DNA of 5,035 nt from Candidatus Diapherotrites archaeon CG08_land_8_20_14_0_20_30_16 (GTDB lineage Archaea; Iainarchaeota; Iainarchaeia; Iainarchaeales; 0-14-0-20-30-16). The translations under genes were made by a program, and so were the position numbers. This document shows, piece by piece, positions 551 to 5,035 of the stretch. The notes beneath the pieces were generated by a model. It was not told where the DNA came from, searched no databases, and saw only the letters and a program-made list of their open reading frames with translations. The stretch is taken from contig PEXK01000006.1 in NCBI GenBank assembly GCA_002779075.1, positions 1 to 5,035 on the forward strand, written 5' to 3'. Numbering within the stretch: position 1 is the stretch's first letter; the number at the start of each line of letters is the position of its first letter.

Positions 551-3500
551 ATGAGTTTTTTTCATGATTTGTATTATAAAATGGAAAACGGATATTATGC
601 TTTTCTAGACAAGCTGGATAAAGCAGGAATACATGTTTACAGAGTTGTTGATCCTATAGATAAAGTAGTTCCTTCATTTGTTTTGATTTTGATTATTTTG
701 GGGCTAATTGTTATTGGTCTAATTTTGTATTTTGCGTTTTTATCTGGATTAAATCCTGCAGGATTGCCGGTAACTGTTTATTTTTTAGATAAATCTGACA
801 AAGCAGTAAGTGGTGTGCAAGTAGATTACGCAATAAACGATGGCGAGGTTTTAAGTGGAAAAACTACTGCTCTCGGGACAATTAGTTTTGAAGCTGCAAA
901 AGGCGATATTGTTGATCTCACTATAACTGCGGGTAATGATGAAGAGAAAAAGCAAATTGTAATTGCAGATGATCTCAATTATACTATTAAATTATTGTTT
1001 TCACTTGCAAAAGATAGTGTGAAATTCAGTGTAAATACTATTGATGCATCGCCTCTAAAACCAGTTAATATTGATTTCTGGTGCTCAAATCCTAATGTTA
1101 CTCCTCCAGAGAGTATTTCAAATACAACAGAAACAAATTATGTTATTGATGTAGATCCAGAATGTGGAGAATTGAGTGTTGATGTCAAATCAAATGATTA
1201 TGAAGAATTTGTTGATGTATTAACTGATGATTATAGTATTAATTTGAAGCCTTTAACTTATGGTGGAAAAGGATCAGTTGTTTTAGCTGTTTATGATTTC
1301 AGTGGCCAGCCAGTTAATGATTATAGTGCTCTTTTATCGCAGAATGGGATACCAATTAATACACAAAGTTCTTATGGTACTAATATTGTTTCTTTTACAG
1401 GTTTGGCAAGTGCAACATATTCAATTAGTGTAACTAAAGCAACTTATTTCACAGGAACCATCCCAGTAACTGTAACTGATAAAACAGAAAGTATTACCTT
1501 AAAATTAGAGAGAGATTTGAATGGAATGACTGGCGATTTATTGATTTCTCTTTTAGATGTTTCAGGGAAAGCTGTTCCCGGTGCTAAAGTTACAGTTTAC
1601 AAACTGAAAGAAGGAAACCAAGGCGATGTTTTAGAGAGCAAAGATTCTGATTTAAATGGCAAGGTGAGCATAAGTGTGCCTGACCTGTCTTTGAAATATT
1701 GGGTTAATGTTACTAAAGCTGGTTTTAAAACAGCAAATAAAAAAGAAGTCAATCCCAAAGAGCCGTTATTAATTGTTATGCAAGTTCCAGGAACAGAAAG
1801 AACAATGAAAATAAGAGTTATTGATGCAGATAAAAACCCAGTTAATAATGTAAGAATTGCATTGTATGATGACAAAGATAATGTTTTTGATCCCTTGTTT
1901 GGAATTACTAATTTAGATGGCAATGCAGAAAAACAAGTAGAAGAAGGCAAGTATAAAGCATATGTTTACAAAGGACAATTCTCAGGGTTTGGAGAATTAT
2001 TTACCTTTGATATTTTGGTTGAACCAAAAGATGGTTTTGACAGCACAGTTACTTTAGGTCTGCCTAAAGCAGCATGGGAGCTGACTCTTAAGGATAAGTT
2101 TGGAATGCCTGTTCCAAATGCATTAATTGAATTGTATGATGCATACAATGATTTCCCAATTGATGTTGGTGCAAAGTTTGCCACTCCGCAAGGATTATTC
2201 AGTGTTGCTAATTTAAGAGCAGACAGAAAATATTTTTGTGTGATAAAAGCACCAAGCTTTGAAAATTATGTTACTCTTTCCAGATTCCTGGATCCAAATA
2301 CAACAACACAGGAAACATTAATTCTGGAAAAAGAAAAATTAGACAAAAACCCTAAAATAGAATTTTTAGGTTTAGAAGATTCTGAAGGAAAGCATGCAAT
2401 TAAATTGGCACCAAATAATTTGTATAAGGCAAAATTCAAAATTAGTTTGCCAAAAGGCACAGATTATACAAAAGTATATGCAAACTTCTTAGCTGGTGAC
2501 AAAGATATTGTTGAAAAAGAAATGTTTTATATTGATAAAGTGAATTTGAGTGCAAATGCAACATTAGTTAAGGGGCGATCTTATTTAGCTGGTGATTTTG
2601 ATAAAAGCATTGGCGTTCCACAAACTCTTTTGGAGACAAGAGGATTTGAAAATGAAGTGTTGCAGGGTATGCCATTTGAAGACCAGACTAAATGGGTTCA
2701 ATTAGGCTGGAACCTCACACAAATAAAGAGTGATGAAGTGTCATCATTGACAAGTGGCCAATTATTTGTTGATGTTTATTTGCAAATCAAAGCAGGAACT
2801 TTGGATGATACATCTTTGCAGTTCTTTTATAATTTGTATGCAATAGGCACTCCACAAAAAGAAAGTGAAAAAGAGTTTACCTATCCTTTAGATTCAAAAG
2901 CAGAGAAGAACCAATCAAGTCTTTTCAATTCCAAGAACTGGCAATTTTTTAGTGTTGGCGAAGGACAGCAAACCTGTGATGATAAATTCTGCTTTGAATT
3001 AACTGTTTTAGATTTAGATGAGCAGTTAAAAACATCAGTAAGCGGTGACACGCCATATATTGCAACTTTAGGCAAAACATATAAAATGCAATTTAATTTG
3101 ATGAATAATAATTTAGTTCCATTAACTCATTACAGATTAATATTAGAAAATCCGCAACAGAATATGCATCTGGTTAAAGGGAAAATATATTCTGCATTAA
3201 ACAGCGAGACAAACCTGCCTGTTGCTGACAAAAATTTTGATGATTTTTTCAAATATGTGTTTAGAGCAGAAGAAGGGGATCAGGTATTGAGCCAGAATAT
3301 GGTTTTGAAAGGAGATTTAGATTTCTTGCCCCTTGTTGAAGGCACAGGCTCTTTCAAAATAACTGTTATTGAAGACAAAACACCAATTTATAATAAAGAA
3401 TTTTTTGTGAGTGTTGTTGCAAATAAAGACCTCAATGTTGAATTGGAGCCAAATGTAATTCCATCATATGTTGATACAAGAATAAAATTTACAGTTACTG

Positions 3501-5035
3501 ATGCACAAACAGGTGCATTTTTGAAAGATGCTAAAGTAATGATTGTTGATGTTTATAAAACTGTTTTAGCAGAAAATATTACTAATAAGTTTGGTGTGTC
3601 AGATATTAATCTAGCTGCACAATTACCAAATATAGATTTAAAGTTAAAAGTATACAAAGAAAATTATAAAGCATACGAAAAGAATTTGAAAACAAATGCA
3701 AAATTTATTTTAATTGAACCAGAAGAATTGAAAGTAAGTGCAATAGTTTCAGATGGTTATGGTCTCGGCAAATTAGCCCTTAAAAATATCTCAGAATTAC
3801 CAGTTAAAATATCTGAAATTTATTTAGAAGGCAATTTTGATGAGTATGTAAACATACAACAAACTAATGAATATTTAACTAAAACAGCACTTAATAAAAC
3901 AATAGATAAAGAACATGAATTTTCTCTGCCAGTAAATGTAAGTTTGACAACAATTGCTGAGTTTTTGAAAGAGAATAGAGAGTATCCTGCGGAATTAACA
4001 ATTAGAGTAATACCAGAATCAGAATTTAAAATAGTAACAAAACCATGGGAATACAAAGTGCCTGTTACTCTGCAAATAATGCTGGGCAAAGGTTTGGACA
4101 GTTTAGACTGTTTGGGTATTGATGTCAAGAAATCAGAGTTGGTTTCAACTGGCGGAAAAAATGATCAGGACAGTATTAATATTGTAAACGGATGCACAGT
4201 AAATAACAAGCCTGTTAAGTTGGTTAATTTAGAAGCAAAGGTTAATTGGAAAGGCAATGCTTTGGGTTCTTTTACATTTAACAGAAATGAGCAGGTATCA
4301 AGATTGCAAAGTGCATATTATGTTACTTTGAACAATAAAATGACTGAGCACGAAAAAGATATGTTTGTTGTAGATTTCTCACCTGTAAATGGAAGAATAG
4401 CAGGCACAGGTAGTGCTGAGATTCTAATTAGAGGCGGATATTTTACTGATTCAGGAATACAATTTGTTGAGAAGAAAGTAGATTATAGTGTAAGTGTTGT
4501 TAATATGTTAGCCTGCATAAGTTATGTTTTCCCAAATAATGAAGTTGATTTAATTTCTGTACCACGCGACCAGAAAGGTAATTTCACAATAAAGAATGAA
4601 TGTGATACAGTAATAGATCTTAAATTAGGTGTTTTGCCTGATCAATATTTAGATGTGCGACCTGTTGAGTTGAGTATACCTGGAAAAACAGAGAAGCAGG
4701 TAGTAATTGATCCAAAAGCATCACCTATAGGAGTATATTTGTTAGAGGTCAGGGGCAAGGTGCCTAAGCAGCACTTTGAAGGTGTTAAAGTAGGTAATGA
4801 GGCTCTTCGTATATTTATTAGCCCTTTGTCAGATGATTGTCTGGTTTTAGATAATTATGAATTCAATTTAATGGGTACTGAAGGAAAAGCAACTGAGCGT
4901 TACACATATTTAATTAATAGATGTTATTACAAAGATTTGAAAGCAGTATACAAATTAGATGTTATTGCCGGGGGTTTTGGCAACTCAACATGCAGTTCTG
5001 AGAACTGGTCTGGTTTAATGGGAACAATGATCCCA
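551..5035 (+). CDS. Giant membrane-anchored multi-domain surface (adhesin- or S-layer-like) protein, 3'-partial. At least 1495 aa lie in the window and the frame continues beyond the edge.
   Basis: My hand translation from ATG 551 gives 1495 sense codons (4485 nt, exactly in frame with base 5035) and no TAA, TAG or TGA. In the same interval the longest ORF listed for the opposite strand is 117 aa. The start is supported by the SD-like motif. The protein begins MSFFHDLYYKMENGYYAFLDKLDKAGIHVYRVVDPIDKVVPSFVLILIILGLIVIGLILYFAFL and ends at the window edge with ...GGFGNSTCSSENWSGLMGTMIP. Trp is encoded by TGG (9 times), so the standard code suffices. Confidence 0.93.
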   Translation, partial: MSFFHDLYYKMENGYYAFLDKLDKAGIHVYRVVDPIDKVVPSFVLILIILGLIVIGLILYFAFLSGLNPAGLPVTVYFLDKSDKAVSGVQVDYAINDGEVLSGKTTALGTISFEAAKGDIVDLTITAGNDEEKKQIVIADDLNYTIKLLFSLAKDSVKFSVNTIDASPLKPVNIDFWCSNPNVTPPESISNTTETNYVIDVDPECGELSVDVKSNDYEEFVDVLTDDYSINLKPLTYGGKGSVVLAVYDFSGQPVNDYSALLSQNGIPINTQSSYGTNIVSFTGLASATYSISVTKATYFTGTIPVTVTDKTESITLKLERDLNGMTGDLLISLLDVSGKAVPGAKVTVYKLKEGNQGDVLESKDSDLNGKVSISVPDLSLKYWVNVTKAGFKTANKKEVNPKEPLLIVMQVPGTERTMKIRVIDADKNPVNNVRIALYDDKDNVFDPLFGITNLDGNAEKQVEEGKYKAYVYKGQFSGFGELFTFDILVEPKDGFDSTVTLGLPKAAWELTLKDKFGMPVPNALIELYDAYNDFPIDVGAKFATPQGLFSVANLRADRKYFCVIKAPSFENYVTLSRFLDPNTTTQETLILEKEKLDKNPKIEFLGLEDSEGKHAIKLAPNNLYKAKFKISLPKGTDYTKVYANFLAGDKDIVEKEMFYIDKVNLSANATLVKGRSYLAGDFDKSIGVPQTLLETRGFENEVLQGMPFEDQTKWVQLGWNLTQIKSDEVSSLTSGQLFVDVYLQIKAGTLDDTSLQFFYNLYAIGTPQKESEKEFTYPLDSKAEKNQSSLFNSKNWQFFSVGEGQQTCDDKFCFELTVLDLDEQLKTSVSGDTPYIATLGKTYKMQFNLMNNNLVPLTHYRLILENPQQNMHLVKGKIYSALNSETNLPVADKNFDDFFKYVFRAEEGDQVLSQNMVLKGDLDFLPLVEGTGSFKITVIEDKTPIYNKEFFVSVVANKDLNVELEPNVIPSYVDTRIKFTVTDAQTGAFLKDAKVMIVDVYKTVLAENITNKFGVSDINLAAQLPNIDLKLKVYKENYKAYEKNLKTNAKFILIEPEELKVSAIVSDGYGLGKLALKNISELPVKISEIYLEGNFDEYVNIQQTNEYLTKTALNKTIDKEHEFSLPVNVSLTTIAEFLKENREYPAELTIRVIPESEFKIVTKPWEYKVPVTLQIMLGKGLDSLDCLGIDVKKSELVSTGGKNDQDSINIVNGCTVNNKPVKLVNLEAKVNWKGNALGSFTFNRNEQVSRLQSAYYVTLNNKMTEHEKDMFVVDFSPVNGRIAGTGSAEILIRGGYFTDSGIQFVEKKVDYSVSVVNMLACISYVFPNNEVDLISVPRDQKGNFTIKNECDTVIDLKLGVLPDQYLDVRPVELSIPGKTEKQVVIDPKASPIGVYLLEVRGKVPKQHFEGVKVGNEALRIFISPLSDDCLVLDNYEFNLMGTEGKATERYTYLINRCYYKDLKAVYKLDVIAGGFGNSTCSSENWSGLMGTMIP
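677..742 (+). other. Single predicted transmembrane helix (signal-anchor) of the giant protein, residues ~43-64.
   Basis: FVLILIILGLIVIGLILYFAFL is 22 consecutive uncharged, mostly aliphatic residues. It follows a 42-aa mixed-charge segment, which is too long for a classical signal-peptide n-region. It is followed by SGLNPAGLP and then beta-rich domains. Confidence 0.8.
767..2299 (+). other. Region encoding five divergent carboxypeptidase-regulatory-like (CarboxypepD_reg / transthyretin-like beta-sandwich) repeats, with one Cys-pair module inserted after the first. Boundaries are approximate.
   Basis: Approximate repeats are R1 767-988, R2 1265-1510, R3 1529-1765, R4 1802-2026 and R5 2069-2299. 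They share a pattern of h-x-h-x-h-x-D-x-x-G/x-x-P-h-x-x-A-x-h-x-h, then T/N-x-x-G-x-h-x-h, then Y-x-h-x-h-x-K-x-G/x-F/Y. Examples are LLISLLDVSGKAVPGAKVTVYKL...DLNGKVSISVP...YWVNVTKAGFKT, MKIRVIDADKNPVNNVRIALYD...NLDGNAEKQVEEGKYKAYVYKGQF and WELTLKDKFGMPVPNALIELYD...TPQGLFSVANLRADRKYFCVIKAPSFE. The family assignment comes from pattern recognition, not a search. Confidence 0.6.
3473..3706 (+). other. Sixth, isolated carboxypeptidase-regulatory-like repeat.
   Basis: RIKFTVTDAQTGAFLKDAKVMIVDVYKTVLAENITNKFGVSDINLAAQLPNIDLKLKVYKENYKAYEKNL follows the same h-x-h-x-h-x-D...A-x-V-x-h...G-x-h-x-h...h-x-h-x-K-x-x-Y pattern as R1-R5. Confidence 0.5.
3716..5035 (+). other. Series of ~108-135 aa Ig-like beta-sandwich modules (CARDB / PapD / ASH-like by pattern). 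The last three open with a conserved Cys pair and the last is cut by the window edge.
   Basis: Approximate modules are M1 3716-4078, M2 4103-4507, M3 4508-4831 and M4 4832-5035+. There is a recurrent early-strand motif h-x-h-x-N-x-[S/C]: LALKNIS, INIVNGC, FTIKNEC, YLINRC. Cys pairs are at codons 4109/4193, 4514/4601 and 4838/4922. Later in the modules come stretches such as RPVELSIPGKTEKQVVIDPKASPIGVYLLEVRG, which are typical of Ig-like folds. Confidence 0.45.

Follow-up and report, generated by a model that had tools for sequence, protein, structure and literature searches.

A 1495-codon open frame of a Diapherotrites contig probably encodes the N-terminal part of a split giant envelope protein in a family of Iainarchaeota

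Introduction

In Sulfolobales, the surface layer (S-layer) is a two-part structure, in which SlaB is responsible for anchoring and SlaA for assembly (10.1101/2023.10.27.564410). For DPANN archaea, NEQ300, Micr_00292 and Nanobdella MJ1_0160 have been described as putative S-layer or surface proteins (10.1101/2023.10.27.564410). Here, we analyzed a DNA stretch of 5,035 nucleotides (the window), which constitutes the entire short contig PEXK01000006.1 of a Crystal Geyser DPANN (Diapherotrites) metagenome-assembled genome (MAG). The window carries an open reading frame (ORF), which starts at the ATG in position 551 of the forward strand and is still open at the last base of the contig. Our data indicate that this gene probably encodes the N-terminal part (B-type) of a split pair of giant all-beta envelope proteins, which belong to a protein family of the Iainarchaeota, and that a stalk-like envelope role is its more plausible function.

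When we compared this protein with the Sulfolobales S-layer, we found several similarities. The family is predicted to combine a membrane-anchored stalk rich in immunoglobulin (Ig)-like domains with a separate or fused outer module, and its domains are all-beta. Moreover, the in-situ pentameric S-layer protein 7ptp showed the top query-normalised TM-score (0.19) among the best 50 fold matches. However, there is no sequence similarity, several paralogs are arranged in an array, and the predicted anchor is located at the N-terminus, whereas SlaB anchors C-terminally. Like NEQ300, Micr_00292 and MJ1_0160, the family is DPANN-specific, involves multiple Ig folds and long extracellular regions and lacks homology to characterised S-layer proteins. 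MJ1_0160 comprises about 1,000 amino acids (aa), but the members of the family described here are 1.5-2.7 times larger and have an N-terminal motif and a C-terminal module of their own. None of our homology searches retrieved NEQ300, Micr_00292 or MJ1_0160. In our literature searches, we found no description of this giant-protein family, and nothing on the envelope or attachment machinery of Iainarchaeota came up.

Results

Coding potential of the window

Re-translation of frame 2 from the ATG at 551 to base 5035 yielded 1495 codons without any in-frame stop, as had been stated in the original prediction, which was made from the letters of the window and a list of its ORFs. From the regional base composition (32% GC) about 127 stops are expected in 1495 codons, and the probability of finding none is about 3e-58. 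The remaining five frames contained 50-204 stops over the same region, and their longest open runs were 42-122 codons. An in-frame TGA at 524 precedes the frame, and the ATG at 551 is the earliest start codon past it. The GC content of the three codon positions (44, 32 and 22%) is a clear coding signature and agrees with the preference for A/T-ending codons noted before. The longest listed antisense ORF indeed measures 117 aa (1597-1950). It is also true that the open frame was missing from the ORF list, but this only reflects a rule of the listing program, which omits ORFs running off the ends. Its absence is no finding in itself, since GenBank already annotates the ORF: our translation is identical to NCBI PIU22588.1 ("hypothetical protein COT14_00410, partial").

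The contig is short (5 kb) and metagenomic, and on this ground alone a chance open frame or an assembly chimera might be suspected. The stop statistics given above and the presence of one Pfam domain above threshold argue against this explanation. In addition, there are hundreds of homologs with the same architecture, and orthologs from independent assemblies are collinear with the window protein. P0002 (Logan contigs L001-L003) aligned over essentially all 1495 residues with 57% identity, P0027 (in L009, a Diapherotrites MAG) aligned with 59% identity, and the protein encoded in L083 aligned with the last 345 residues at 66% identity. DNA repeats that might collapse during assembly were not present, since Tandem Repeats Finder and a second repeat finder gave only chance-level matches in the window. 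Because independent assemblies encode collinear proteins, sequence comparison indicates that the frame is not an assembly artefact. Thus, the suspicion is effectively refuted, and 551-5035 is a real protein-coding gene, as predicted. Exact-match scans of species-representative genomes and Joint Genome Institute (JGI) metagenomes recovered no longer copy of the contig. When the window was scanned for Rfam families and tRNAs, we obtained either no matches or chance-level ones.

Domain structure of the encoded protein

The window involves the following features:

2-475, + strand: 3' end of the upstream gene (last 157 codons and stop codon), which encodes an A-type giant paralog of the family
476-550, + strand: AT-rich intergenic spacer with the Shine-Dalgarno-like motif GGAAGAGG at 536-543, 7 nucleotides before the ATG
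551-676 (aa 1-42), + strand: conserved N-terminal motif, ..YY..E..YY..LDK.D..GI.VY.V.DPIDK.VPS
677-748 (aa 43-66), + strand: hydrophobic helix, signal anchor or h-region of an extended signal peptide
749-2227 (aa 67-559), + strand: membrane-proximal array of about six diverged beta-sandwich domains (Pfam and family profiles)
1556-1753 (aa 336-401), + strand: CarboxypepD_reg domain (PF13620; Pfam, E 4.5e-18)
2228-4081 (aa 560-1177), + strand: family-specific central module, all-beta, about 620 residues
2975-2992 (aa 809-814), + strand: C-x4-C hairpin in the large sandwich domain, with C809 and C814 nearly invariant
4082-5035 (aa 1178-1495), + strand: three cysteine (Cys)-stapled domains

The N-terminal motif ranks with the best-conserved parts of the family (56% mean column identity in alignment A4), and its residues Y16, L19, D20, Y30, D34, P35, I36, D37, P41 and S42 are invariant. 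The window protein matched the corresponding profile hidden Markov model (HMM) with an E-value of 6e-24. It also carries the adjacent hydrophobic helix, which occupies the same position in all homologs and is the sole strongly hydrophobic segment of the window protein (Kyte-Doolittle 19-residue mean of 3.25, threshold 1.6). Thus, the C-terminal transmembrane anchor of S-layer proteins has no equivalent here. A PGF-CTERM/archaeosortase signal, as known from archaeal S-layer glycoproteins, was not detected either: the PGF motif was absent from the window protein, P0002 and P0027, and there were no NCBIfam matches.

Some very large secreted proteins carry extended targeting motifs at their N-terminus, such as ESPR in autotransporters and TpsA proteins or the YSIRK signal peptides. 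By analogy, the motif of our family would be a conserved sequence that precedes a hydrophobic export segment and is restricted to very large surface proteins, but it is archaeal and unrelated to ESPR and YSIRK in sequence. Its probable role is that of a signal dedicated to the targeting or anchoring of exported giant proteins.

Alternatively, the helix could belong to a signal peptide of unusual length that is cleaved off. The mature protein would then be released at its N-terminus and would otherwise be held at the surface or secreted. The small residues past the helix (..FLSG/LNPAG; ..VMGA; ..LSGPS) resemble a signal-peptidase site, and Gly-rich weakly hydrophobic segments further downstream in the orthologs and the fused relatives could attach such a protein. 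However, a stretch of about 22-24 residues with a hydropathy of 3.25 corresponds to a transmembrane segment rather than to a typical h-region, and the strong conservation of the preceding 42 residues suggests a functional domain that is retained. We consider cleavage unlikely and favor a retained N-terminal anchor.

In the membrane-proximal array, the CarboxypepD_reg domain scored 65.8 bits (gathering score 32.3) and was the only domain of the protein above the curated Pfam threshold. Weaker Pfam matches were obtained for bMG3 and Big_1, of which bMG3 had no individually significant stretch. Additional diverged prealbumin-like domains were detectable by family-derived profile HMMs only. These profiles located prealbumin-like domains at residues ~75-135, 240-317, 325-408, 415-505, 514-567 and 978-1042, and the HMM of the whole Ig region matched with an E-value of 2e-105. 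One domain of the array is Cys-stapled (C178-C205). The window protein resembles the CarboxypepD_reg/prealbumin-like (transthyretin-like) beta-sandwich arrays of PF13620 proteins and of NOMO (BOS complex) in having one domain above threshold and four or five more found with family profiles, and when the family profile was run against PDB sequences only transthyretin-like domains were hit, with NOMO2 as best match. However, such domains make up about one-third of the window protein, and PF13620/NOMO proteins have no counterpart of the N-terminal motif, the central module, the Cys-stapled domains or the C-terminal module. Self-BLASTP did not detect internal repeats in the protein. Thus, the predicted repetitive character applies at the fold level only, since neither this search nor the two repeat finders indicated real repeats.

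The central module consists of a large sandwich domain, further sandwiches and one prealbumin-like domain (residues ~961-1049). In almost every one of the 150 family matches listed, it begins close to residue 570. Its own HMM recognized the window protein with an E-value of 1e-153, but no Pfam or NCBIfam match to residues 560-1177 was found. In fact, most of the protein matches no Pfam family, and the NCBIfam scan gave nothing useful. We modelled residues 560-1495 with AlphaFold2 from an 8-sequence alignment. The model consists entirely of strands, and the predicted local distance difference test (pLDDT) values for residues 560-1177 were mostly 55-87. Foldseek searches against the PDB returned generic tandem Ig-like arrays, including adhesins (PrgB, Bap, SdrD), alpha-2-macroglobulins, integrins and S-layer proteins. 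With bacterial alpha-2-macroglobulins the protein shares weak Pfam matches (bMG3, MG4) and Foldseek matches (ECAM, Salmonella A2M). However, it involves neither the thioester motif CxEQ nor thioester or bait-region domains, and the Pfam scan matched no A2M family. We rejected this identity, and the likeness reflects only the common beta-sandwich fold.

SPEARE proteins are giant nanohaloarchaeal proteins with serine protease, adhesion and restriction-endonuclease domains. The window protein is not of this kind, as no protease or nuclease families were detected in the Pfam and NCBIfam scans.

The distal part of the protein (Cys-module HMM, E 1e-75) involves the cysteine pairs C1187-C1215, C1322-C1351 and C1430-C1458, and the Cys and Asn columns of these domains are nearly invariant. 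The contig edge truncates the third of these domains shortly before its end. Together with C178/C205 there are four pairs, which are spaced by 27-29 residues and are nearly invariant across the family. The nearly invariant family columns that the window protein retains include C178, C205, C809, C814, C1187, C1215, C1322 and C1351. Between orthologs, the distal Cys-stapled domains share 71-77% identity compared with 47-52% for the membrane-proximal domains, and they constitute the best-conserved part of the ectodomain. The window protein follows the module order of the family: the prealbumin-like array is followed by the central module and then by the Cys-stapled domains.

Missing C-terminus and probable split gene pair

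Three orthologous loci indicate what may follow beyond the contig edge. P0002 extends the last residue of the window protein by 294 residues, P0027 by 79 and the L083 protein by about 190, and in all three the extension begins with a weakly hydrophobic segment rich in Gly, Ala and Ser and ends in a tail of low complexity. Because these loci add only 79-294 residues, the full window protein should comprise about 1,575-1,790 aa, of which about 5-20% are missing. The earlier suggestion that the full protein could be much larger was not borne out. The same applies to the claim that its modules are still repeating at the edge, which lies in the last of the three Cys-stapled domains. What remains of the prediction in this respect is a very large, poorly characterised surface protein that is cut by the contig edge, and our data support it.

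In L001, L009 and L083 a separate gene encoding 829-839 aa begins 27-36 nucleotides downstream. Its product starts with a separate signal peptide and further comprises about 100 hydrophobic residues that resemble a Gly zipper, as well as the conserved C-terminal module of the family. This module, which is marked by the signatures KFH..., YCDATQFSI (YCDxxQF), SPFYYLPFDG..GR.GYG and FWWNP, is located at the end of the longer family proteins, and the C-terminal module of the fused proteins is the module of the separate ~830-aa gene in the lineage of the window. Judged from these loci, the window gene would represent the B-type N-part of a split pair, and its C-module gene would lie beyond the contig end. 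We modelled the C-terminal module from residues 1780-2516 of P0004 using a 31-sequence alignment. The model was mixed alpha/beta (mean pLDDT 85.5, predicted TM-score (pTM) 0.74), and Foldseek found no global match for it among PDB and viral folds.

Several additional observations were made for this part of the family. Gly-zipper-like weakly hydrophobic segments flank the split point (P0002 residues ~1490-1515; L001:12802-15315 residues ~80-125) and are also present in fused members (P0004 residues ~1440-1460 and 1686-1705). These segments may be membrane-interacting or flexible linkers. In L004:15681-20657, the C-module gene (1658 aa) also encodes PKD domains and a Dockerin_1 domain (E 4.7e-8), which is unusual in an archaeon.

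It might be argued that the window gene is a decaying, non-functional N-terminal piece of a once-fused protein of about 2,500 aa. The family consists mostly of fused proteins (both terminal modules are present in 33 complete ORFs, median length 2467 aa), and loci such as L016 and L059 look frameshifted. However, the same split is retained in L001, L009 and L083, although these are only 57-66% identical to the window protein. Furthermore, the spacer measures 27-36 nucleotides, the downstream gene has a signal peptide of its own, 1495 codons stay open in DNA of 32% GC, and versions encoded by two or three genes are found repeatedly in numerous other lineages. Decay is therefore very unlikely, and a functional split pair is the preferred reading.

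Protein family, paralog classes and gene arrays

The size of the family was determined by an exhaustive profile search with residues 560-1495 and seven homologous segments. With a cutoff of E<=1e-3 it yielded 926 cluster representatives, and with E<=1e-30 there were 339. Most family members comprise 2,300-2,700 aa. Word-index homolog searches severely under-sampled the family (6 and 21 matches). When the query was an alignment of 80 sequences, such a search was dominated by CarboxypepD_reg repeat proteins of bacteria and yielded no further members of the family. The pattern [VI]DPID[KS][VH][VIF]P of the N-terminal motif alone retrieved 74 loci from species-representative genomes. Nearly all of them are labelled Candidatus Iainarchaeum (including Ca. 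Iainarchaeum andersonii), Diapherotrites or unclassified archaeon, and several genomes carry two or three motif loci. The few remaining motif contigs are labelled Chloroflexota, Thaumarchaeota or Micrarchaeota and may be wrongly binned or labelled. We also noticed that L040 (DAOWAC010000029.1), L041 (JAFCCH010000004.1) and P0034 (MFA5741408.1) carry the family but are assigned to MAGs of Chloroflexota, Thaumarchaeota and Izemoplasmatales, which probably reflects binning or labelling errors.

For a survey of the loci, five module HMMs (N-terminal motif, Ig region, central, Cys and C-terminal) were run against all ORFs. Such a locus typically carries two or three giant paralogs in tandem on one strand, as in L049 (2493, 2476 and >906 aa), L017, L038 and L076. 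Apart from the 33 complete ORFs with both terminal modules, we counted 33 that have the N-terminal but not the C-terminal module (median 1653 aa) and 22 that have the C-terminal module only (median 871 aa). Fused, two-gene and three-gene versions all recur, and the N-terminal motif is confined to giant ORFs.

We aligned 79 central-module sequences by hmmalign and constructed a neighbour-joining tree, which grouped the paralogs by their position in the array and not by genome: A (first), B (second), C (third) and D (solitary). Within the B clade, L001_2 and L009_2 are the neighbours of the window protein, and the next branch includes the unsplit 2603-aa protein L012_2. These groupings suggest that A, B and C are ancient paralog classes that are kept in a fixed order.

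The 3' end of the upstream gene fits this picture. ORF 2-475 matched residues 2269-2426, the C-terminal end, of the 2428-aa A-type protein of L001 with 32% identity (E 2e-21). In L001 the gene of this A-type protein directly precedes the ortholog of the window gene, and the A-then-B order is found in L001 and L009. Because ORF 2-475 matches the A-type C-terminus and the window protein falls in the B clade, the sequence comparison places the window at an A-to-B junction, where an A-type gene ends and a B-type gene is covered for the most part. The window gene thus has an A-type paralog directly upstream on the same strand. In the spacer between the two genes, the predicted Shine-Dalgarno-like motif is the purine-rich GGAAGAGG, and comparable purine runs are located 5-8 nucleotides before the ATG of the orthologs in L001 and L009. 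A sigma-70 promoter scan gave chance-level matches only, and the sigma-70 model is inapplicable to archaea.

Individual members showed peculiarities. The A-type protein of L001:69-7355 has a low-complexity insert of about 200 residues rich in Q, G, M, N and Y (GMGMQGAYGMQ...) at residues ~1290-1510, between its Ig-rich and its C-terminal part. The D-type protein P0008 terminates with two copies of a Cys-rich extension (..ECC.G.C....C....DCDDGD.CT.D.C..) at residues ~2290-2428, which is absent from the other members examined.

Genomic neighbourhoods

The solitary D-type members are located in a conserved neighbourhood (L004:1-25679, L005:1-19977), with a Hel308-like helicase upstream and an ORF of about 255 aa, SepF, Cdc6/Orc1 and PolD DP2 downstream. 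It can be seen that the D-type loci are part of the chromosomal core and adjoin genes for replication initiation and cell division. We rejected a viral or mobile-element origin of the family. The PHROGs scan gave no match for the window protein and the NCBIfam scan nothing meaningful, and the chromosomal neighbourhoods agree with this conclusion.

Past the last giant paralog, we observed a conserved gene block for a coiled-coil protein and for four or five polytopic membrane proteins of small size, ~64-192 aa (L006:18662-24637, L008:11599-16123), and genes of small membrane proteins were also seen in L013, L016, L026 and L029. In L006 and L008 the block adds a protein of about 500 aa, followed by a second coiled-coil protein. 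The ~500-aa protein had a near-threshold HerA/DUF87 match (22.3 bits, threshold 23.2) and an apparently degenerate Walker A motif. The block of small membrane proteins could represent a linked membrane apparatus.

In two loci we noticed small genes past the gene of the C-terminal "head" module. In L001:15457-16006 this gene is followed by two 92-aa ORFs with an 8-nucleotide overlap. This arrangement resembles a toxin-antitoxin pair, but no Pfam match supports such an identity and we rejected it. In L083:4397-5327 a 177-aa ORF, which looks acetyltransferase-like by eye, and then a 121-aa ORF follow.

Discussion

According to our working model, the N-terminal 42 residues would remain in the cytoplasm, and the single helix would anchor the chain in an N-in/C-out orientation. 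About 1,400 residues (~14 beta-sandwich domains) would project from the membrane as a long stalk, and the distal Cys-stapled domains with the Gly-rich end would hold or meet the separately exported "head". The A-type and B-type proteins, together with the C-type where present, would then build a non-redundant multi-subunit structure of the cell envelope or surface. An extracellular topology is suggested by the single strong helix, the conserved cysteine pairs and the all-beta fold, which is typical of extracellular proteins. Since the paralog classes are conserved in position, the D-type loci lie in a core context and the family is nearly universal in the phylum, we favor a structural role in the envelope.

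Alternatively, the protein might chiefly be an adhesin, whose Ig-like stalk binds a host cell, a partner cell or a substrate. This is a serious rival to a structural envelope role, although we consider it the less likely of the two. The best fold matches include PrgB, Bap and SdrD, and domain types such as CarboxypepD_reg, SpaA-like and SdrD_B-like are common in adhesins. With PrgB, Bap, SdrD and adhesins of the LapA/MpIBP type the window protein shares a long stalk of tandem beta-sandwiches. Unlike these giant bacterial adhesins, it is archaeal, has no near-identical tandem repeats and is anchored by a predicted N-terminal helix. Neither GGxGxD (RTX) repeats nor an LPxTG signal was found in the window protein, which argues against an RTX adhesin of a type I secretion system and against a sortase-anchored adhesin. 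For a DPANN archaeon of the same geyser study, contact between symbiont and host has been proposed to depend on large surface proteins (PMC6792436), and this proposal would be in line with an adhesin, as would the faster divergence of the membrane-proximal compared with the distal domains. In contrast, variable adhesin repertoires are usually lineage-specific, fast-turnover duplicates, whereas the paralog classes described here appear to be ancient and are kept in fixed order across genomes. Moreover, no lectin or other binding domain was recognised, and Iainarchaeota have been reported to possess an anabolic capacity sufficient for a free-living lifestyle (PMC10936187). On balance, we prefer the structural envelope role.

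Several points weigh against this interpretation. The function, be it envelope scaffold or adhesin, is suggested by architecture and context, and the docking of stalk and head is a proposal. The charges flanking the helix do not settle its orientation, and if the helix were cleaved as part of an extended signal peptide, there would be no N-terminal anchoring. For residues 1178-1495 the AlphaFold2 model is of low confidence, and the Foldseek matches of the central-module model are generic, with TM-scores <=0.2. N-glycosylation sequons are not clearly enriched (16 observed, 12.1 +/- 3.2 in shuffles). The tree that defines the paralog classes has no bootstrap support. Finally, the split is extrapolated from three orthologous loci (57-66% identity), and the window ends before the predicted stop.

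A more far-reaching interpretation, which we regard as improbable at present, is that the A-B-C arrays constitute an undescribed, phylum-specific surface apparatus of the Iainarchaeota with the window gene as its B-component stalk subunit. Such an apparatus would include the N-terminal motif, the head module, which has no fold relative in the PDB, and the small polytopic membrane proteins downstream (at least six loci), and in at least two loci the block would be continued by the degenerate HerA-like ATPase. If this were true, the arrays and the membrane block could represent a novel system by which giant envelope proteins are assembled or exported.

The ORF itself has already been deposited, and giant Ig-rich membrane-anchored surface proteins are a known kind. 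They are well known from bacteria and also familiar from DPANN archaea, for which they have been proposed (PMC6792436; 10.1101/2023.10.27.564410). This family is distinguished by four features: the N-terminal motif, a central module that matches no described family, a C-terminal module that was modelled with confidence but has no fold match and the fixed A-B-C array. The sequence [VI]DPID[KS]x[VIF]P, when it precedes a transmembrane helix, provides a simple marker for its genes, and the N-terminal motif could also act as a contamination marker. According to a rough estimate from one MAG (L069, L076), these uncultured archaea, whose genomes are small, spend about 2-3% of the genome on giant envelope genes in tandem, position-conserved arrangement. 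The family represents a defined and testable candidate for the cell envelope or the attachment machinery of the Iainarchaeota.

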